A DNA stretch of 5,835 nucleotides from a virus, in the IMG/VR virus record IMGVR_UViG_3300045988_014863, positions 1 through 5,835 of that record; one strand, written 5' to 3'. Numbering within the stretch: the first letter of the stretch is position 1; each line of letters opens with the position of its first letter. The position numbers were made by a program, and so were the translations under genes. This document shows positions 1 to 5,835 of the stretch, one piece after another. The notes below the pieces were generated by a model that searched no databases, was not told the DNA's origin, and saw nothing but the letters and a program-made list of their open reading frames with translations.

Positions 1-55
1 TGTATCCTTGCCGCCAGATTTCTTCTTTGTGTTCTTGATAATAGTGATCGCCGAG
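1..55. repeat. Terminal direct repeat, copy 1, identical to 5781-5835. This is a circular-genome assembly overlap, and the unit length is 5780 bp.
   Basis: Positions 1-55 and 5781-5835 are identical over 55 of 55 nt. The VP4 reading frame stays in phase across the join (5833-5835 corresponds to 53-55). Confidence 0.95.
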
Positions 56-802
56 GCCCGGCTTTAGACTCATGCATGCAAATGGTTTTGTTTGCCCTAA
101 CTCGTAGTATGCATTTGCTTTCTTTCCGTCTATTTCGTACATTTTTTTTGTAACGTATCCTGCAACATACCTATAGGTTTCTGGAACTGCTTGTGCTATC
201 TGTATTTGACCCATTCCCCATAGGTTTTCTAACCATTTACTGGTATAGTATCCGTTGTGGTGAATCTTGTATAGTTGTTCTAGGTCTGTTGGTCTCCATC
301 CGTATAGAATCATATGATAATGCGGTCTCGCTGTCTGTTCTCCGTACTCCCCCGCTACAAAATAGCGTAATTTGCCCCTGTAAGCCTTTCTGAGACGTTT
401 TAAGAACTTCTGAATATCTTCATACAGTAAAATTTGAACACTGCTAGGGAGCTTCTCTCCCGGTTTCCATGTGTACTGCACCTTTCGCATGATTTCACCT
501 GTTTTTACTATCATGCCTGGTATATGGTCATCATCATAAGTTAGCGTGATAAACCATACTTGTTCTTTCGGATAATCTCTTGCTTCTAGTTCTATTCGTG
601 TTGTCCAATCCTCTCGCTGCCTGATTCTGCATCCGATGCACTGTCCGCATGGTATCAACATGACTTTTGGATTATACATCAAATCTTCATATTTTAGCTG
701 TTTCCCGCTTAGCTCAGAAAAGCGGGCGAGTGAATAAACTCGTCCGCTCTGTTCTTTATTATCCGGGTTGTACAGCCTTATTAATGGCTTGTAACAACTC
801 AT
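1..802 (-). CDS. VP4: Replication initiation protein VP4 (HUH rolling-circle endonuclease, phiX174 A-like), N-terminal 267 codons. The gene continues across the circular junction into 5563-5780.
   Basis: Manual minus-strand translation starting at ATG 802..800 gives MSCYKPLIRLYNPDNKEQSGRVYSLARF...PCGQCIGCR...VWFITLTYDD (motif I)...ARPHYHMILYG (HUH motif II)...YRYVAGYVTKK (motif III, two Tyr three residues apart as in phiX A, YVAKYVNKK). SD AGGTGA sits 9 nt upstream. The ATG overlaps the VP2 stop as ATGA. The ORF track missed this gene because it runs off the window edge. Confidence 0.9.
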   Translation of the reverse strand, partial: MSCYKPLIRLYNPDNKEQSGRVYSLARFSELSGKQLKYEDLMYNPKVMLIPCGQCIGCRIRQREDWTTRIELEARDYPKEQVWFITLTYDDDHIPGMIVKTGEIMRKVQYTWKPGEKLPSSVQILLYEDIQKFLKRLRKAYRGKLRYFVAGEYGEQTARPHYHMILYGWRPTDLEQLYKIHHNGYYTSKWLENLWGMGQIQIAQAVPETYRYVAGYVTKKMYEIDGKKANAYYELGQTKPFACMSLKPGLGDHYYQEHKEEIWRQGY

Positions 803-1683
803 TTCAGATAATCACCTGGCTTTCTTTTTTCACCATAGTTTCCCGTTTTATTCTGCATAGGGTTTTCTGTTTTGTGCCCTACTTTGTTACTGCCGCTTGT
901 CTTTTTCCCTGTTTTATTCGTGATGTCCCCGATTGTTTTGCTTGTTTCGTTATCGATATTCGTTAGCGCTTTCATTAGGCCGTAAGGACTTAGATGTGTT
1001 TCACTTAGCATTTGATTCCAGCTTTGTGAAGCGTTATACCAATCCGATTTACTCCAGCTTTCGCTGCTGTACGAGTTTGGAACAAATCCGTTACTTCTGC
1101 TTACTCCTAGTGCGCTGCTGCTTGCTAGTCCCATGCTTGCTCCGCTGATTGTTCCCGCTGACCCTCCCGGTGTGCTTGCTCCGCCGTTTGCAAATGCCAG
1201 AATCGGGTTTAAACCTGCTTTTTTCATGTCTTCAACAGTTCTTTGATATGCTGTGCTGCTCATATACTCTTGGAACTGTCTGTTTGCTAGTGCTTCGGCG
1301 CTGTTGTAATTCATTGCGGCTGTGTTTTCGATGTGGTTATATATTCCTTGCATGATGGCCTGCATCGTGTTGTATCCCATCTGTTGCAGCATGCTTTTTT
1401 GGTTGTATTTTTGCTGTGCTACGCCCTCTGCGCTTTGGTATCCGTACGCTTGCTGTAAATATTTTGCGATTTGTTCATCATTTGTTCCGGATAGACTTCC
1501 GCTTGCGGACATTCCACCGCCTTGGCCTACGCTTCCGCCTCTGCTTTGCCCTGTTCCTTCATTTCCCCAACCGCCAAAAGTGCCGGTAACGTTTTTTACT
1601 GCGTTTGTTATGCTTCCTATGCTCGTTGCAACATTGCCGAGTATGCTTGTTCCTTTTATAATTGCTCCCCATGGAATTGCCAT
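799..1683 (-). CDS. VP2: VP2 minor capsid / DNA pilot protein (Gly/Ser/Thr/Gln-rich, 294 aa).
   Basis: The ORF lies immediately downstream of VP1 in the conserved VP1-VP2 position. Low-complexity G/S/T/Q/N composition (GGWGNEGTGQSRGGSVGQGGGMSASGSLSG) is characteristic of Microviridae VP2/H-like pilot proteins. Its stop overlaps the VP4 start. Confidence 0.8.
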   Translation of the reverse strand: MAIPWGAIIKGTSILGNVATSIGSITNAVKNVTGTFGGWGNEGTGQSRGGSVGQGGGMSASGSLSGTNDEQIAKYLQQAYGYQSAEGVAQQKYNQKSMLQQMGYNTMQAIMQGIYNHIENTAAMNYNSAEALANRQFQEYMSSTAYQRTVEDMKKAGLNPILAFANGGASTPGGSAGTISGASMGLASSSALGVSRSNGFVPNSYSSESWSKSDWYNASQSWNQMLSETHLSPYGLMKALTNIDNETSKTIGDITNKTGKKTSGSNKVGHKTENPMQNKTGNYGEKRKPGDYLK

Positions 1684-1691
1684 TTTAAAAT

Positions 1692-1712
1692 AGCCGGGTT
1701 TTTGGCCCGGCT
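1692..1712 (-). terminator. Intergenic VP1-VP2 hairpin AGCCGGG-ccaaaaa-CCCGGCT followed by ATTTTAAA. Candidate partial terminator/attenuator, or a structure that bridges the distant SD and the VP2 ATG.
   Basis: A 7-bp GC-rich inverted repeat (1692-1698 pairing with 1706-1712) is followed by a U-rich tract on the sense strand. The only SD, AGGAGG at 1718..1713, lies about 29 nt upstream of the VP2 ATG (1683) with the hairpin in between. Confidence 0.35.
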
Positions 1713-1723
1713 TCCTCCTTTCT

Positions 1724-3406
1724 TTACAGTTTTTCCAGTCCCGGCACGCTGTACAGCGGCATGCAACGAGTAGTATTGTTTATTACTCGGATTGCTCCAA
1801 AGAACTGCGGCTCGTTCTGCTCAATCAAAGTTCTTGCAATTTCGTCTTTTCCTTCGGTCATCCATTCTTGACTGAGTGTTGGCACCTCCTTGTAGTTGTC
1901 TGCATAGTGCCAGAAGTCCAGCGTTCCTTCTGCATTGCTTCGCATTTTACCACTTACCCGGTTCGGCTTCATTCGATAGTCGGCCCAGGCCTCCTGGTAG
2001 CCGAACGTATCATCATCTGTTGCCTTTCCTGTAACCATGATTTCTTTCTTCTTTACTGGCTGTTCGCCTATATTTGCGAACTGCGGAAAGTAGTAGTCCA
2101 GTCTGTCGCTACGGCTCCAGAAGCGTTCCAAGCCCTGCTGGTAGCTGTGATCGTGACGCACGCACATGACGCCGATAACAAAGCCGTGCTCCTCAAAGCT
2201 CTTTGTGAAGGAACTTTCGTTAATGGGTGTTACTGACATTGCACCGGTTTCACCGATAGGTGTATCATTTGCTGCCTGCTGTCCGCTGGTCTGCACGATT
2301 TGGTTGATGTTCACATGATAGCGTCCGCCGCCCAGATATTCCGGCACCTGAACGGTTTTGTCGCTGATGCTTACACCAAAAAGCGCACGTACCTGTTCAC
2401 GGTATCGACTGCCGCCGCGTGCCAGTGCTTCATAATAGTGCTGAACTGCAAAAGCTTGGCGCAACTGGTTGATTGTTGCTGCTTCAATTTCGCTGAGGTC
2501 GGTTGCAATGTATCTTGAGACAGAGACTCCGCCTGTCTGTTCTGTTGAGCCTAGTGCTATGATTGGGTCATTTGCAGTGTTCTGTGTTAGATATGCCGCC
2601 TTTCCACTCATCCAAATTAGAGTTGGGTTCGTTGGCCCGTTGATTCCTTCGTCGTCGTACATTTTTACAGGCGCATTTCCTGTTAGTGCGAGGGTCACTT
2701 CCGGTCCGCGCTGAGGATACGGCATACAGGATGAGAAGTAGTCGTGGAAGCGATTTACCGGCAGGCAGTATCCGCCGCAGATAGCATATTTGAGAATATT
2801 TTCTTTGGATACTTCGCTTTCATTCCCGCTTCCCGCTTCGTATTCTATGTCATCGTCTCCTGTACTGAAGACTGCCGGGTTCCCTACGTTTTGGTCTCTG
2901 AAAAATTCATTCCAGATTTTAATGTATGCTCTGACGGGGAGTGCGTTTATTTTTACGTTTCCCGTTTCTCCCTTTTTGATAATTTTTGCCGGGACTCCCA
3001 TATAGTCTAGAATGCTGTTTGTGTCTGGGTAGTCTCTTGCTGCTCCACCTTTATCGTTATCGATTATGATATTCGGCACTTTGTATGTTTTTGTCGGCAT
3101 CCACGGGTTATCGTCTGCTTCTCCCATGAACCGCTTGAAGTTATCCCATAGGATTCGGTTTGGGCAGTAGAAGTAGTAGAAGTCAATGTATGCATCGTCG
3201 AACACGGGATATTTCGGCGTAGTCATTCGGATGATTGCCGCTGTTTGCACGTTGAACGTATCGCCGGGAAGGACTTCGTCAACGTAGAACGGAATCAGTT
3301 TTCCTGCATCGAAAGTCGTGAGGATATTCTGGTCTCGATTGAACCGCGTTCTACTGACGTGTGTTTCCGGTACCTGGTTAAAGTGTCTTTCATTATTCCG
3401 GTTCAT
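1724..3406 (-). CDS. VP1: VP1 major capsid protein (Microviridae F-like, gokushovirus type), 560 aa.
   Basis: The N-terminus, HFNQVPETHVSRTRFNRDQNILTTFDAGKLIPFYVDEVLPGDTF, is the canonical gokushovirus VP1 signature (compare Chp2 ...TTFDAGYLIPIFCDEVLPGDTF). Size of 560 aa is typical. SD GAGGAAA sits 7 nt upstream. Confidence 0.95.
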   Translation of the reverse strand: MNRNNERHFNQVPETHVSRTRFNRDQNILTTFDAGKLIPFYVDEVLPGDTFNVQTAAIIRMTTPKYPVFDDAYIDFYYFYCPNRILWDNFKRFMGEADDNPWMPTKTYKVPNIIIDNDKGGAARDYPDTNSILDYMGVPAKIIKKGETGNVKINALPVRAYIKIWNEFFRDQNVGNPAVFSTGDDDIEYEAGSGNESEVSKENILKYAICGGYCLPVNRFHDYFSSCMPYPQRGPEVTLALTGNAPVKMYDDEGINGPTNPTLIWMSGKAAYLTQNTANDPIIALGSTEQTGGVSVSRYIATDLSEIEAATINQLRQAFAVQHYYEALARGGSRYREQVRALFGVSISDKTVQVPEYLGGGRYHVNINQIVQTSGQQAANDTPIGETGAMSVTPINESSFTKSFEEHGFVIGVMCVRHDHSYQQGLERFWSRSDRLDYYFPQFANIGEQPVKKKEIMVTGKATDDDTFGYQEAWADYRMKPNRVSGKMRSNAEGTLDFWHYADNYKEVPTLSQEWMTEGKDEIARTLIEQNEPQFFGAIRVINNTTRCMPLYSVPGLEKL

Positions 3407-3788
3407 TGTTTTCCTCGTCCTTTTTTTGTTTGTTTGCTGTCTCTTCCTGCATTTGTTTCAGTTCCATTGCTTTGGCCTGCGCCGTTGCCATCATTGCGTG
3501 GTATTCGTGGATGTTGGTAGGCCATTCGGTGATATCCATAATTTCGTCTGTTTTTGCGCTGTCTGCAAGACTTTTTGCAAATTCCGGGTCAAAGCTTGCT
3601 TTGCGGACAATGTTTTTGATGTCGCATTCGTCTGCATAGCTTTCAATTTCTGCTTGAGTGTCGATTGGCTCTGTTTCAATCAGTTTTTTGTTGCCTTTTT
3701 CGTCCTTCCCCCAGACGTACTGTTTGCGTAGTTTTTCGCCTGAATCCGTAAAGAAGGGCATTCGCTCTTCTTCATATCGCTTATTCAT
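3393..3788 (-). CDS. VP3: VP3-like internal scaffolding protein (131 aa, acidic).
   Basis: It lies immediately upstream of VP1, overlapping it by 14 nt. It is acidic with a Glu-rich C-terminus. It contains an ECDIKNI motif resembling the ECDINNI motif I recall in gokushovirus VP3 proteins. SD GGGAGGG sits 8 nt upstream. Confidence 0.6.
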   Translation of the reverse strand: MNKRYEEERMPFFTDSGEKLRKQYVWGKDEKGNKKLIETEPIDTQAEIESYADECDIKNIVRKASFDPEFAKSLADSAKTDEIMDITEWPTNIHEYHAMMATAQAKAMELKQMQEETANKQKKDEENNEPE

Positions 3789-4020
3789 GCGGTTTTCCCT
3801 CCCATGCTTTATCGTTCATGTTCTGGAACTCGCCGGTTTCATCTTCAAACATTGCCAGTTTGTAACCCACGTAATCGGCCGGAGACTGGCCGATGAACGT
3901 TTTTTCGTCTTTTGCCATTACGTTGCACATCCTCGCAAACGTTTCGTTGTTTTTGCTTTCGCCTACCCATGCGTAGCACTTCGCCACTTTATCGTAGATA
4001 CCATAGTAACTGTGAATCAT
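3781..4020 (-). CDS. Hypothetical small protein, 79 aa (possible VP5 analogue).
   Basis: Strong SD AAAGGAG 7 nt upstream of the ATG. The stop overlaps the VP3 start by 8 nt. No TM segment is apparent. Confidence 0.55.
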   Translation of the reverse strand: MIHSYYGIYDKVAKCYAWVGESKNNETFARMCNVMAKDEKTFIGQSPADYVGYKLAMFEDETGEFQNMNDKAWEGKPHE

Positions 4021-4140
4021 GTTTTTCTCCTTTACAGTCTGATGCCGCCCCTCATGGGTTTCTGGCTGAGATTAATACTCTTCGTTTTGCGTGCCGTCAC
4101 GTTGAACATTCGTTTGTCAGTTCGTCTCGGCATTCTCTGC

Positions 4141-4362
4141 CTATGCTTCATTGTTGTACTCCCTTCGGATTAGTTCCAATTGGATGTCGTTTGCCCATGC
4201 TTTCATTATCCAGATTCGGTCAATGATTTTTTTTGCGTCTTCTAAGTTGGATACTTTTTTAATCATTTTGTATCCAGCTTCAATTTCTTTGTATAACTTG
4301 TCTGCTTCGATTCGTAGGTCTTTTTCGGTCTGGTCTCTCACGTTCCATGTCTTGTGCAGCAT
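4141..4362 (-). CDS. Hypothetical small protein, 73 aa (charged, predicted helical).
   Basis: SD AAGGAG lies 8-9 nt upstream of the ATG. Composition is coding-like and Lys/Glu/Ile-rich. It sits in the sense-strand gene array. Confidence 0.55.
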   Translation of the reverse strand: MLHKTWNVRDQTEKDLRIEADKLYKEIEAGYKMIKKVSNLEDAKKIIDRIWIMKAWANDIQLELIRREYNNEA

Positions 4363-4367
4363 TGTCT

Positions 4368-4472
4368 TTACTCCTTTTCCTTCAGAATGTGGTAAATCTG
4401 GTCCAGCTTTTCCAGCACGGTTTTGATCAGCTGGATTGCTTCTCGCAGATCCTTGACTTTGATTAATGCCAT
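4368..4472 (-). CDS. Candidate unannotated 34-aa ORF (MALIKVKDLREAIQLIKTVLEKLDQIYHILKEKE). It is below the ORF-track size cut-off.
   Basis: ATG at 4472..4470 lies 3 nt after the peptidase stop. SD-like AGGGGG sits about 8 nt upstream. The amphipathic, helix-like sequence fills the gap between the peptidase and 73-aa genes exactly and ends 5 nt before the next ATG. Confidence 0.3.
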   Translation of the reverse strand: MALIKVKDLREAIQLIKTVLEKLDQIYHILKEKE

Positions 4473-4475
4473 AGG

Positions 4476-4862
4476 TTACACCCCCTTTCTGTATCGCTTT
4501 TCACGCACATCAACGTGTGTGAAGTTTGTGTATTTGATTACGCCGCCTTGCTCCATGATTTCATCTGCGTACTTTGCGACTTCTTTGCTGCTGTGTCCTT
4601 TTACTACGATATCCGCCGCCATTCCTTTGCAGTGGTACGAGTTTGGCGCTCCGCCTGCTTTTGCATTCCAGCTTGGCGTGCGGTATCCGCTGTTGATGAT
4701 GACTGGTGCGTTGAAGTGGTTTCGGATTTTTTCCAGTATTTCAATCAGTTCTAAGCAGTACAGGAATTCTTTTGTTCCGTCTTTGCATTTGAATTCTTTT
4801 CCTGTAAAATGCTCTGCCCCTATAAGCTTTCCTTCGTATTCGTCAGCGTAAATCGATCTCAT
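4476..4862 (-). CDS. Peptidase M15 family (VanY / D-Ala-D-Ala carboxypeptidase-like, Peptidase_M15_3/4-type) peptidoglycan hydrolase, the putative lysis enzyme; 128 aa.
   Basis: The zinc-peptidase signature SxHxxGxAxD is present as SYHCKGMAADIV, with SGYRTP upstream and the HxD element (FTHVDV) downstream. Size is about 130 aa. SD AAAGGAAG sits 7 nt upstream. Confidence 0.85.
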   Translation of the reverse strand: MRSIYADEYEGKLIGAEHFTGKEFKCKDGTKEFLYCLELIEILEKIRNHFNAPVIINSGYRTPSWNAKAGGAPNSYHCKGMAADIVVKGHSSKEVAKYADEIMEQGGVIKYTNFTHVDVREKRYRKGV

Positions 4863-4908
4863 GGTGGCTTCCTTTCTGTCTTTGTTATATCATGGCGTTG
4901 TTTTCTTG

Positions 4909-5094
4909 TCAATGCCATATAAGTCTTTTTTCGTTTTCAAGTTGGTTAACTCTTTGTCTGGATAGCTGGCCGCTTCTGTTTTCCCAACATCCTTTCTTCT
5001 TGTTGTAAGTGTATGGATACAGTGGACGCTTGCCAATTCTCGGATTGTAGCATATTAATTTTTTGTTTTCGGTGTATTCGTAGTCGCTTCTCAT
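4909..5094 (-). CDS. Small basic protein, 61 aa (MRSDYEYTENKKLICYNPRIGKRPLYPYTYNKKKGCWENRSGQLSRQRVNQLENEKRLIWH). Putative DNA-binding/packaging protein (J/VP8-like).
   Basis: The true start is the internal ATG at 5094..5092, preceded by SD AAAGGAG (9 nt spacer) and the consensus promoter. The track ORF start at 5148 lies inside the -35 box. Net charge is about +8. Confidence 0.55.
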   Translation of the reverse strand: MRSDYEYTENKKLICYNPRIGKRPLYPYTYNKKKGCWENRSGQLSRQRVNQLENEKRLIWH

Positions 5095-5119
5095 GTTGTT
5101 TATCTCCTTTTCTGGTTTT

Positions 5120-5148
5120 ATTATAACACTATTCTTTACCTTTGTCAA
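5120..5148 (-). promoter_or_regulatory. Near-consensus sigma70 promoter on the sense (minus) strand: -35 TTGACA (5148..5143), 17-bp spacer, extended -10 TGtTATAAT (5128..5120), with an A-rich UP-like tract upstream (5172..5149).
   Basis: Plus-strand tgtcaa at 5143-5148 and attata at 5120-5125 are separated by exactly 17 nt. TG lies 1 nt upstream of the -10. The sense strand reads GGAAAAGTTTCAAAAAAGAC immediately upstream of the -35. An SD and ATG follow about 12 nt after the predicted TSS. Confidence 0.6.
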
Positions 5149-5174
5149 GTCTTTTTTGAAACTTTTCCTAAATG

Positions 5175-5215
5175 GTCATGCGGTCGGCGCTGGTGCGCCG
5201 AATGAAAAGCATGAC
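5175..5215. repeat. Bipartite imperfect hairpin GTCATGC-ggt-CGGCGC-tggt-GCGCCG-aatgaaaa-GCATGAC, upstream of the promoter.
   Basis: Outer 7-bp and inner 6-bp inverted repeats were verified by reverse complementing. It lies about 26 nt upstream of the -35 box on the sense strand. Confidence 0.4.
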
Positions 5216-5256
5216 GTAACTTTCGGCTTTCGCTCGCCGGACGGCCTTTATTAGTT

Positions 5257-5418
5257 TTCAACATTTTCAACATAGTTTTCAACATTTCAACATTGTTAAA
5301 CTTTAGCACAACAGAGTGTTTCAACATTTCAACAAGTTTTCAACAAAGTTTTCAACATTGTTTTTTGTTTGTTTTTAACGCTCTAACGTTTTAAAATTAT
5401 ACTTTTCAACTTTTCAAC
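5257..5418. repeat. Iteron array: ten direct copies of TTTCAACA(T) in three clusters (4+4+2), with 8-12 bp phasing inside each cluster.
   Basis: TTCAAC cores sit at 5257, 5266, 5278, 5286, 5320, 5328, 5339, 5351, 5405 and 5413, all in the same orientation. This is a non-coding AT-rich region between the VP4 terminator and the promoter. Confidence 0.7.
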
Positions 5419-5455
5419 ATACCCTACTACTACGACTACAACAAGTTATATTATA

Positions 5456-5506
5456 ATACGTGCGCACGCGTGCGCGTGTAGTTTTCGCGTGCACGTGTGT
5501 GCGCGA
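5456..5506. repeat. Two GC-rich alternating purine-pyrimidine palindromic tracts. The first spans 5456-5480 and contains the perfect 14-bp palindrome GCGCACGCGTGCGC at 5462-5475. The second spans 5486-5506 and contains the palindrome CGTGCACG. They are flanked by an AT-rich tract (5441-5457).
   Basis: Perfect R-Y alternation runs over 25 nt and over 21 nt. The palindromes were verified by reverse complement. The two tracts are also partly complementary to each other. They are embedded in otherwise AT-rich DNA. Confidence 0.6.
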
Positions 5507-5518
5507 TTAGATTAATAA

Positions 5519-5550
5519 AGCCCAGTACTCTACTTGATAGGTACTGGGCT
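5519..5550 (-). terminator. Hairpin AGCCCAGTAC-(12-nt loop)-GTACTGGGCT followed by TTTATTAAT on the sense strand, 13 nt after the VP4 stop. Putative rho-independent terminator ending the genome-long transcription unit.
   Basis: A 10-bp perfect inverted repeat (5519-5528 pairing with 5541-5550). A U-rich tail (revcomp of 5509-5518) lies immediately 3' on the sense strand. Confidence 0.45.
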
Positions 5551-5562
5551 AGGTGACACCAA

Positions 5563-5835
5563 CTATAAAATACCACGCTTTTTCGTTTGTTTTTTGGTGA
5601 CACGTTCTTTTGTCTCTAGGACTGTCTTGTAGTCCTGTGCTTCTAGCTGTAGACGCTTCTGCTCTATGGCGTTTTTCTGTCTGTTTTGCTTAATTCTCCA
5701 CAATCTTTGTGGGTTTTCCGCTTCCATCTGCTTTTCGTAGTATCTTGGAATCTGCGCTTGTTTTCCGTTTGTGCATTGAATGTATCCTTGCCGCCAGATT
5801 TCTTCTTTGTGTTCTTGATAATAGTGATCGCCGAG
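5563..5835 (-). CDS. VP4: VP4 replication initiator, C-terminal part (72 codons plus stop; 5781-5835 duplicates 1-55). The full protein is 339 aa.
   Basis: The frame is continuous with 1..802 across the junction. The tail reads ...QCTNGKQAQIPRYYEKQMEAENPQRLWRIKQNRQKNAIEQKRLQLEAQDYKTVLETKERVTKKQTKKRGIL and ends at TAG (5565..5563). This Lys/Arg/Gln-rich tail is typical of gokushovirus VP4 C-termini. Confidence 0.85.
   Translation of the reverse strand, partial: LGDHYYQEHKEEIWRQGYIQCTNGKQAQIPRYYEKQMEAENPQRLWRIKQNRQKNAIEQKRLQLEAQDYKTVLETKERVTKKQTKKRGIL
5781..5835. repeat. Terminal direct repeat, copy 2 (a duplicate of 1-55 from linearising a circle).
   Basis: Exact 55-nt identity with the window start. 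Confidence 0.95.

Follow-up and report, generated by a model that had tools for sequence, protein, structure and literature searches.

What would a copy of a bacterial chromosomal replication origin do in the genome of a small single-stranded DNA (ssDNA) phage? The question is raised by the 5,835 nucleotides of IMG/VR virus record IMGVR_UViG_3300045988_014863 (positions 1 to 5,835, here called the window), which almost certainly represent one complete circular gokushovirus (Microviridae) genome of 5,780 bp. It is a new member of a known human and pig gut gokushovirus lineage with an acquired M15 peptidase, and without the element described below the genome is routine. This element is a conserved origin-like module in the non-coding region, hereafter the cassette; it is the only unusual feature of the genome and was overlooked in an earlier note on this DNA. 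Taken as a whole, a complete M15-bearing gut gokushovirus with a host-type DnaA origin cassette is the explanation that we favour and consider fairly probable.

Architecture of the non-coding region

The non-coding region covers ~470 nt between the VP4 stop codon (5563) and the ATG at 5094. Read along the coding (minus) strand, it consists of a hairpin (5550-5519), a CG/CA palindromic block, the sequence TATTATAATATAACTTGTTGTAG-TC-GTAGTAGTAG, ten copies of GTTGAAA grouped into three clusters, GC-rich hairpins and the promoter (Table 1). These ten exact copies compare with 1.1 expected in the whole window, a number matched in none of 200 shuffles, and all of them lie within 163 nt; TRF gave a period of 21 for the array. 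On the plus strand, where the repeat reads TTTCAAC, the segment 5403-5458 has the sequence TTTTCAACT-TTTCAACA-TACC-CTACTACTAC-GACTACAACAAG-TTATATTATAATA. It contains the run CTACTACTA, which corresponds to three perfect 3'-GAT-5' trios on the coding strand; three to six such trios are found in relatives.

Comparison with bacterial replication origins

The basal unwinding system (BUS) of bacterial origins comprises a DnaA box with at most two mismatches to the 9-mer consensus, often with a tandem second box (at most four mismatches), and then, after a spacer that may span up to 16 bp (a ~4-bp GC cluster), three or more trios of the consensus 3'-GAT-5' (Pelliciari 2021, PMC8287927). The published minimum of three trios was used in a combined box and trio scan. 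In the window, the box TTTTCAACA (5411-5419) has two mismatches to TTATCCACA and none to the local box of the candidate hosts described below, and TTTTCAACT stands alongside it. The spacer is TACC, 4 nt long, compared with cccc, gccc or cgccc in host origins, and the trios CTACTACTA occupy 5424-5432. These three parts are present even when the box is judged against the universal TTATCCACA consensus, and the composite pattern arose in none of 20,000 shuffles of the window. Neither a box with trios nor a box cluster was found in phiX174, Chp2, SpV4 or phiMH2K. The trio region of C. difficile, CACCTACTACTATTACTACTATGA, lies upstream of the unwinding element (PMC7561715) and is similar to that of the window. 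DnaD recognises TnnT repeats (PMC10201434), and the strand opposite the window's trios carries such repeats. In its location the cassette departs from a chromosomal origin, as it sits between VP4 and the accessory genes and not beside dnaA and dnaN.

Bacterial genomes were scanned for three closely spaced copies of TGTTGAAA, which gave at least 120 loci. Among the matches listed, the array was located between dnaA and dnaN in nine loci (L101, L107, L111, L123, L146, L149, L157, L174 and L195), labelled Oscillospiraceae, Ruminococcaceae, Ruminococcus or Clostridia. Pfam searches at the host loci identified DnaA (PF00308, 7e-69; PF08299; PF11638) together with the three beta-clamp domains of DnaN. 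The dnaA-dnaN regions hold up to 19 copies of TTTCAAC and not one canonical TTATCCACA. At its end, the L101 array reads TTTTCAACagTTTCAACA-cccc-CTACTACTACTACT-aaacatatatac and the L195 array TTTTCCACA-gccc-CTACTACTACTACT-aaaataaatat; side by side, the segments are TTTTCAACagTTTCAACAccccCTACTACTACTACTaaacatatatac in L101, TTTTCCACAgcccCTACTACTACTACTaaaataaatat in L195 and TTTTCAACtTTTCAACAtaccCTACTACTACgaCTACaacaagttatattataat in the window. Host and phage boxes have similar flanks (A51 G41 T63 / TTTCAAC / A90 and A50 G34 T52 / TTTCAAC / A86, respectively), and their spacings of 8-12 bp agree.

The recognition helix of the host DnaA reads RDHSTIVYA, compared with (R/K)DHTTV(I/L)HA in the structures from B. 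subtilis, Aquifex and E. coli. Variants across L101, L111, L123, L146, L149 and L157 follow RDHST(I/M)(V/T)(Y/T), with KNYSTVIY in L111. The changed residues, which we take to be the counterparts of T435 and H439, two residues of E. coli DnaA that contact bases, would be consistent with an altered box specificity. From the sequences compared here we conclude that TTTTCAACA/TTTTCCACA would be the DnaA box of this bacterial group, replacing TTATCCACA, and that the cassette appears to copy their origin. With the BUS of bacterial origins (B. subtilis incC, C. difficile oriC2 and the Oscillospiraceae dnaA-dnaN regions L101, L123 and L195) it shares additional upstream box clusters, the tandem boxes, a C-rich spacer of ~4 nt and at least three GAT trios, next to a candidate A+T-rich unwinding stretch; with the Oscillospiraceae origins it also shares the identical non-canonical box. 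It differs from them in its place on a 5.8-kb ssDNA-phage genome, its short, GC-clamped A+T stretch and the extra sequence CTACAACAAGTTA.

We infer that the host of the phage is an Oscillospiraceae/Ruminococcaceae bacterium. Shine-Dalgarno sites, present on eight of the ten genes, and the perfect sigma-70 promoter fit a Firmicutes host. The searchable literature contained no description of such a cassette and no paper joining Microviridae with 'DnaA box'. Publications on DnaA-trios and bacteriophages were reviews and unrelated reports, none of them on phage-borne trios, and a paper on viral tagging of F. prausnitzii held no microvirus result.

Conservation of the cassette in viral genomes

Of 75 relatives, 70 had an array of 4-12 copies in the same region, with hardly any copies elsewhere in the genome. 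The copies stand at fixed offsets (+36, +90, +102, +121...) from the anchor ACTTGTTGTAG even at ~70% VP1 identity. In five relatives (L003, L048, L052, L054 and L076), anchor and array are inverted as a block, with the hairpin and the CG block unmoved. The inverted cassette measures ~230 nt and is also found in about 30 distant microviruses (L211-L314). CG-rich sequences lie at both ends of the cassette and could mediate inversion.

A scan of IMG/VR for the tandem box, spacer and CTACTAC returned at least 109 new loci, and 104 of those listed were microviruses. Among the matches listed, the cassette-bearing microviruses extended down to 36% identity in VP1 and 34% in VP4. More than 170 microviruses conserve the cassette, in one orientation or the other, and the layout throughout is boxes, spacer, (CTA)3-6, CTACAACAAGTTA and A+T stretch. 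The proximal box is TTTTCCAC in most phage relatives, and in the most distant group (VP4 at most 44% identical) the cassette occupies the other strand relative to the genes. The extension CTACAACAAGTTA (window 5433-5448; CGACTACAACAAGTTA on the plus strand) is invariant in microviruses down to 34% VP4 identity, and may be a phage-specific site, possibly for VP4. On the coding strand, the CGACTACAACAAGTTA region holds AACTTG, a sequence that the phiX174 origin contains as well.

A full cassette was also found in a siphovirus fragment (L239:1780-1975), part of a 39-kb IMG/VR contig with Dit and Gp37-like tail genes, as a box array followed by TTTTCAACAGTTTCAAC-cgccc-CTACTACTA and an AT-rich sequence. 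A second larger viral contig (L253:2068-2286) carries a dense array. Judged by these matches, the origin-like module is not confined to microviruses.

These comparisons bear on whether the repeats could be iterons of the phage itself, bound by VP4, VP5, the ORF8-like protein or the 73-aa protein, with the likeness to host origins being convergent or the relic of an old capture. Iterons occur in rolling-circle plasmids and CRESS-DNA viruses, Rep-encoding replicons commonly carry them near the nick site, and the invariant CTACAACAAGTTA beside the trios is phage-specific. However, box sequence, flanks, spacings and higher-order layout all match the host dnaA-dnaN origins, the boxes remain identical while VP4 drops to 34% identity and accessory proteins vanish, and the siphovirus has the same cassette without these proteins. 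Iterons are therefore an improbable explanation. The occurrence of the cassette in either orientation relative to the genes suggests a function as double-stranded DNA, and an orientation-independent element in unrelated phages of one host group points to a host protein acting on double-stranded DNA. The protein that binds the boxes is quite likely to be DnaA.

Completeness and circularity of the genome

Comparison of the window's ends showed that bases 1-55 and 5781-5835 are exactly the same, leaving a unique circle of 5780 bp, which fits the size range of Microviridae/Gokushovirinae (about 4.4-6.3 kb). On this circle a 339-aa open reading frame (ORF) with an ATG start, VP4, runs along the minus strand from 802 to 1 and then from 5780 to 5563. 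A look-up of the exact VP1 protein retrieved the ENA metagenome scaffold ERZ28644999 scaffold_1331 (L004), a circular permutation of the window with 0 mismatches. This scaffold is 5,824 bp long and its ends overlap by 44 bp; its break corresponds to window position ~1760, and it spans the 5780/1 join uninterrupted. The terminal overlaps in related IMG/VR contigs (55, 77, 99, 119 and 141 nt) equal assembler k-mer sizes, so the repeat in the window is an assembly wrap-around and no biological terminal repeat. Circularity is based on the two concordant assemblies, possibly from one sample.

The earlier note had proposed a complete circular gokushovirus-like genome. The identical 55-nt ends, the VP4 frame that continues across the join once the sequence is circularised at 5780 bp, and the permuted ENA scaffold all bear this out. 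The profile searches that it suggested for the 560-aa and 339-aa proteins gave strong matches for VP1 (Table 1) and VP4 (PF23343, 4e-17; phrog_942, 6e-109), and the VP1 signature TTFDAGKLIP...DEVLPGDTF, which it had cited, was found in the 560-aa protein. Protein identities and the NCBI taxonomy of the nearest records place the genome, by likeness, in Gokushovirinae.

It is hardly credible that the contig is something other than a free complete genome, such as an artefact of assembly, a chimera into which host origin DNA was joined, or part of a prophage after excision. Its circularity does come from k-mer-length overlaps in assemblies, but the two identical assemblies have different break points, and gene set, gene order and size agree with those of over 80 circular relatives drawn from many samples, all of which have the cassette in the same position. 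No microvirus genes turned up in the bacterial genomes scanned or among the array-bearing loci listed.

Search for a prophage state

A scan of 185,579 bacterial species genomes found no VP1 relatives, and no microvirus proteins occurred in the array-bearing bacterial loci among the matches listed (at least 120). The dif core consensus had 0 matches in the genome at up to three mismatches. The best dif-like motifs scored 18/28 (E. coli dif) and 17/28 (B. subtilis dif) against shuffled maxima of 19-20, with the caveat that the host's own dif may differ; the two query sequences are what we take to be the dif sites of these species. Pfam and PHROGs searches of the genome's ORFs detected no integrase. 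With the scan for VP1 empty, dif scores at chance and no integrase, lysogeny was rejected, in agreement with the earlier reading that no integrase or attachment site is visible. Enterogokushoviruses (EC6098) lysogenise via XerCD at dif (Kirchberger & Ochman 2020, PMC7062461). They resemble the phage of the window in having a non-coding region that borrows a host chromosome-maintenance site and in lacking an integrase. The window differs in having neither a dif-like motif nor prophage copies, and the site that it appears to have borrowed is the origin and not the terminus.

Possible function of the cassette

According to the explanation that we favour, host DnaA would occupy the box clusters of the double-stranded replicative form. 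From the tandem pair it would extend as an oligomer along the coding-strand trios and melt the 13-nt A+T stretch, which is clamped on its far side by the CG block. This opening could allow DnaD and its partners to load the host helicase, or offer ssDNA to the HUH initiator VP4, which would then start rolling-circle synthesis on that substrate. That the cassette serves as an element for unwinding, or as an origin, when the phage replicates is, to our judgement of the sequence, about as likely as not. A further step, that in this phage and in a large group of gut microviruses the replicative form fires the phage-borne copy of the host origin like a minichromosome via DnaA and the host helicase loaders, appears unlikely. 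If true, it would permit plasmid-like persistence and inheritance in Oscillospiraceae/Ruminococcus without integrase or dif, and would tie phage replication to the host cell cycle.

Use of DnaA by mobile replicons has precedents: the P1 oriR, F, pSC101 and RK2 origins use DnaA, and the 'A site' of the ABC primosome is a DnaA-box hairpin. As in these plasmid and phage-plasmid origins, the cassette would place host DnaA boxes on a mobile replicon and recruit the initiator beside the replicon's own Rep. In the plasmid origins, by contrast, DnaA boxes are paired with Rep iterons, a full copy of box, trios and DNA-unwinding element is lacking, and none of these replicons is a microvirus.

Several points weigh against a DnaA-dependent origin. 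We know of no microvirus that needs DnaA; replication of phiX174 relies on gpA together with the helicase Rep and the primosome of PriA. At 13 nt, the A+T stretch is shorter than those of host origins, and it abuts a GC-rich block. The bacterial scan was seeded with the phage motif, which makes its taxonomic distribution a biased sample, and the assignment of the Oscillospiraceae DnaA box is itself deduced from position and repetition. CTACAACAAGTTA is absent from the nine host origins and invariant in the phages, which suggests that something beyond DnaA acts there. Finally, the two concordant assemblies of the genome may stem from the same reads.

The short A+T stretch also counts in favour of another role for bound DnaA, in which the cassette would be a DnaA sink (like datA) that stalls host initiation, or a DnaA-responsive operator that couples the promoter (5148-5120) to the replication state of the host. 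The ten boxes lie 110-270 nt upstream of the sole consensus promoter, and DnaA is a known transcription factor that is titrated by box clusters. Such a sink or operator needs boxes only, and leaves unexplained why more than 170 genomes strictly conserve a tandem pair, a spacer, at least three perfect trios and an A+T stretch. The cassette is also kept whichever way it faces and although its distance from the promoter varies, and we regard this role as rather unlikely.

The repeat is also one base away from a Spo0A '0A box', TGTTGAA compared with TGTCGAA, and in oriC of B. subtilis the two kinds of box, 0A and DnaA, overlap, so that a sporulating host might silence the phage through its master regulator Spo0A, as in phi29. 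This is very improbable: TGTTGAA is dominant and TGTCGAA absent among the recurrent exact 7-mers of the non-coding region, the box is the only repeated candidate DnaA box in host origins, where it adjoins DnaA-trios, and many Oscillospiraceae do not sporulate.

A conserved hairpin downstream of VP4

The hairpin just past the VP4 stop codon has an invariant 8-nt loop core, ATCAAGTA on the coding strand, whose complement ACTTGATA lies on the plus strand at 5532-5539; the coding-strand counterpart of ACTTGATA in the loop region is TAACTTGTTGTAG. Among 30 distinct sequences, 96% of cells were paired and three pairs had double-sided changes (11 cells). Covariation was 0.128 compared with 0.047 after shuffling (0/500 shuffles reached it), slid controls collapsed, and the folding z-score was -3.4. 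The stem is strong and covarying; the tail is TTATTAAT in the window and is not T-rich in many relatives. An invariant loop is not expected of a plain terminator, and the hairpin is largely limited to genomes with VP4 at least 52% identical, which indicates that its distribution follows the initiator lineage. Its role may be that of a terminator, of a Rep/ssDNA recognition site, or of both.

ACTTGATA is the core of the phiX174 origin CAACTTG/ATATTAATAAC, which is nicked after CAACTTG and annotated as rep_origin at 4306. The two phages share an HUH initiator with a two-tyrosine motif, and the nick-spanning 8-mer ACTTGATA is the exact complement of the loop. They differ in that the phiX174 origin lies inside gene A, without a hairpin and on the sense strand, whereas the 8-mer of the window lies in a hairpin loop on the antisense strand; homology of the two sites is conjectural. 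As a nick site conserved among microviruses, ACTTGATA was rejected for SpV4, where the sole copy is in coding DNA without a hairpin and probably due to chance.

Gene content

All genes are located on one strand, in the order 61-aa accessory protein, M15 peptidase, 34-aa ORF, 73-aa protein, ORF8/J-like protein, VP5, VP3, VP1, VP2 and VP4 (Table 1). The antisense orientation given in the earlier note holds for every credible gene, and seven plus-strand ORFs of 99-171 aa, including the longest, had no family match. Its order of promoter, accessory genes, M15, small ORFs, VP3, VP1, VP2, VP4 and hairpin also stands, apart from the 60-aa basic ORF (5327-5145) that it had counted as a gene. This ORF overlaps the two four-box clusters and is probably spurious. 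Its N-terminal half is the translated repeat (ATG-TTG-AAA, M-L-K), its C-terminal half is unconserved as protein although the DNA hairpin inside it (GGCGC-N4-GCGCC) is kept in relatives, and inversion of the cassette splits it. The inventory of VP1, VP2, VP3, VP4 and M15 was right, but VP5, the ORF8/J-like protein and the conserved 34-aa ORF had been overlooked, and the TTG taken as the start of a 79-aa ORF is the -35 box of the promoter, the gene encoding 61 aa from the ATG at 5094.

Table 1. Location of features in the window and on the 5,780-bp circle
Feature	Position	Strand	Details
Wrap-around copy	1..55	.	same as 5781-5835; unique circle = 1-5780
VP4 replication initiator, N-terminal part	1..802	-	start ATG 802-800; HUH-superfamily motifs
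VP2 DNA pilot protein, 294 aa	799..1683	-	phrog_8742 2e-110; Gly-rich N-terminus
VP1 major capsid protein, 560 aa	1724..3406	-	PF02305 1e-134; phrog_514 5e-198
VP3 internal scaffolding protein, 131 aa	3393..3788	-	PF09675 7e-11; phrog_24309 1e-57
VP5 (Phage_ORF5), 79 aa	3781..4020	-	PF20577 2e-11; phrog_1670 8e-18
ORF8/J-like basic protein, 39 aa	4032..4151	-	33% Lys/Arg; Shine-Dalgarno site; phrog_10695 1e-10
73-aa helical protein, conserved	4141..4362	-	in 79/83 relatives; no significant family match (Pfam, PHROGs)
Conserved 34-aa ORF	4368..4472	-	Shine-Dalgarno site; tblastn matches in 168 loci, conservative substitutions
M15_3 zinc peptidase, 128 aa, putative endolysin	4476..4862	-	PF08291 5e-24; phrog_894 1e-35
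61-aa accessory protein	4909..5094	-	AAAGGAG 8-11 nt upstream of ATG 5094
Sigma-70-type promoter, extended -10	5120..5148	-	TTGACA-17-TGTTATAAT, 12/12 consensus match
GC-rich hairpin	5175..5216	.	core CGGCGC-TGGT-GCGCCG 5185-5200; kept as DNA structure, not protein
DnaA-box-like clusters, TTTCAAC(A), 4+4	5256..5356	+	5256, 5265, 5277, 5285; 5319, 5327, 5338, 5350
Tandem proximal boxes	5403..5419	+	TTTTCAACT 5403-5411; TTTTCAACA 5411-5419
Spacer, trios and invariant extension	5420..5445	+	TACC (5420-5423), CTA CTA CTA (5424-5432), CGACTACAACAAG
13-nt 100% A+T stretch	5446..5458	.	TTATATTATAATA; candidate DNA-unwinding element
Alternating CG/CA purine-pyrimidine palindromic block	5459..5505	.	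orientation unchanged when cassette inverted
Conserved hairpin just past VP4 stop	5519..5550	.	perfect 10-bp stem AGCCCAGTAC/GTACTGGGCT
VP4, C-terminal part over join	5563..5780	-	stop codon 5565-5563

VP4 contains the HUH-superfamily motifs FITLTY (84), HYHMIL (161) and YVAGYVTK (212), the last with two tyrosines, and its start overlaps VP2 by 4 nt (ATGA). The 39-aa ORF ends in PMRGGIRL, comparable to IMRGGIRF in Chp2 ORF8 and AMRGGIRL in the phiMH2K J-like protein, and gave tblastn matches in 185 related loci. Because of this C-terminal likeness and wide presence, it is assigned, by sequence, as the putative DNA-binding protein of ORF8/J type. No ORF matched external scaffold (D) or spike (G) genes in Pfam or PHROGs. 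The sole Rfam match, RAGATH-33 at 2006-2124 (minus strand) inside VP1, scored 26 bits where the gathering score is 120 (E = 0.036), and was dismissed as chance.

The M15 peptidase is present in 81 of 83 relatives. Its zinc-binding and catalytic motifs, SYHCKGMAAD (75-84) and HVD (116-118), fit SxHxxGxAxD and H-x6-D plus a C-terminal H, and lysis would proceed through this enzyme. An export route for the enzyme, by a holin, signal peptide, SAR domain or membrane partner, was sought among coding-strand ORFs of at least 20 aa, and none had a 19-residue window with hydropathy above 1.6. The slot between promoter and M15 (4863-5119) is variable. The 61-aa protein occupies it here and in 10 other loci (protein-level homologues in 11 loci); elsewhere it holds unrelated small proteins, e.g. 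MKHTYELRKFNDD..., and some genomes carry two.

Strand asymmetry

The coding strand consists of 37.6% A and 18.1% T. The AT skew at four-fold degenerate sites is +0.55 to +0.70 in every gene of the window, compared with -0.30 to +0.13 in the nine candidate-host loci and -0.01 in the dsDNA siphovirus L239. Among known microviruses it is -0.85 in phiX174 F, -0.32 in Chp2 VP1, -0.40 in SpV4 VP1 and +0.26 in phiMH2K VP1, so that the sign in the window is opposite to that in phiX174, Chp2 and SpV4. The strong skew is thus a property of this lineage and not of the candidate hosts or of the dsDNA phage. Cassette orientation was rejected as the cause, because the skew is the same with the standard (+0.55, n=126) and the inverted cassette (+0.49, n=31).

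Outgroups served to polarise the substitutions in 24 independent sister pairs. G>A was seen at 104/886 sites and C>T at 30/774 (p = 2e-9), a 3-fold difference, and T>A exceeded A>T (p = 5e-5); A>G and T>C did not differ. The composition observed is the one that these rates predict. The excess of G>A and T>A on the coding strand means that changes toward T are elevated on the antisense strand, a pattern seen on the packaged strand of ssDNA phages. Strand-asymmetric synonymous substitutions of this type would be compatible with an ssDNA phase. As the phiX-like nick core lies on the same strand as the T-ward changes, the clade might package the strand complementary to its mRNAs, which we put forward only tentatively and consider doubtful; the main rival explanation is that selection favours a sense strand that is rich in purines and pairs poorly with itself.

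Relatives and lineage

The best annotated relative is Gokushovirus WZ-2015a (KT264791), which matches 58% of the genome at 78% nucleotide identity. Other near records, Human gut gokushovirus SH-CHD5 (KX513868) and pig-faeces Microviridae sp. MG945xxx, have the same gene order, and KX513868 carries an annotated 'peptidase M15'. IMG/VR contains at least 167 relatives, at most 83% (VP1) and 95% (VP4) identical to the window. The human and pig gut M15 gokushoviruses share with the window the gene set and order, a size of 5.5-6.1 kb, M15_3 and the non-coding cassette, with VP1 67-75% and VP4 84-86% identical. They differ by species-level divergence, a mosaic VP2 and another accessory gene in the slot between promoter and M15. 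Peptidases of the M15_3 type have been described in human-gut gokushoviruses, where they group with Faecalibacterium proteins, and Clostridiales hosts were speculated (Roux 2012, PMC3394797).

VP1 is 34-36% identical over its full length to VP1 of Chp2, phiMH2K and SpV4, and has a 72-aa local match to phiX174 F. These three ICTV type members of Gokushovirinae (phages of Chlamydia, Bdellovibrio and Spiroplasma, respectively) have homologues of VP1, VP2, VP3, VP4, VP5 and the ORF8/J-like protein, and likewise lack phiX-type external scaffold and spike genes. They differ from the window in having no M15, in being about 1.2 kb smaller and in having no DnaA-box cluster or box with trios. VP2 identity to relatives tends to fall into two classes (about 84-90% or about 50-70%) independently of VP1 identity, a pattern that indicates probable mosaicism or recombination within the clade. 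Two IMG/VR 'microvirus' contigs, L058 (10.7 kb) and L070 (8.8 kb), greatly exceed the length of one genome; in L058, nine box copies lie on one strand and eight on the other, and this contig may be a head-to-head dimer or a misassembly.

Implications

In the human and animal gut, gokushoviruses rank with the most abundant and stable phages, and this lineage has never been cultured. The real interest of the window is what appears to be a conserved copy of an Oscillospiraceae-type chromosomal origin. The non-canonical box and trio cassette provides a sequence-based host call (Oscillospiraceae/Ruminococcaceae) that is directly testable, and the TTTTCAACA box, together with the changed DnaA helix, would be useful for the prediction of origins in Oscillospiraceae. 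A rolling-circle ssDNA phage that uses the chromosomal initiator of its host would stand outside the phiX174 paradigm, and such use might account for persistence over long times in the absence of lysogeny.

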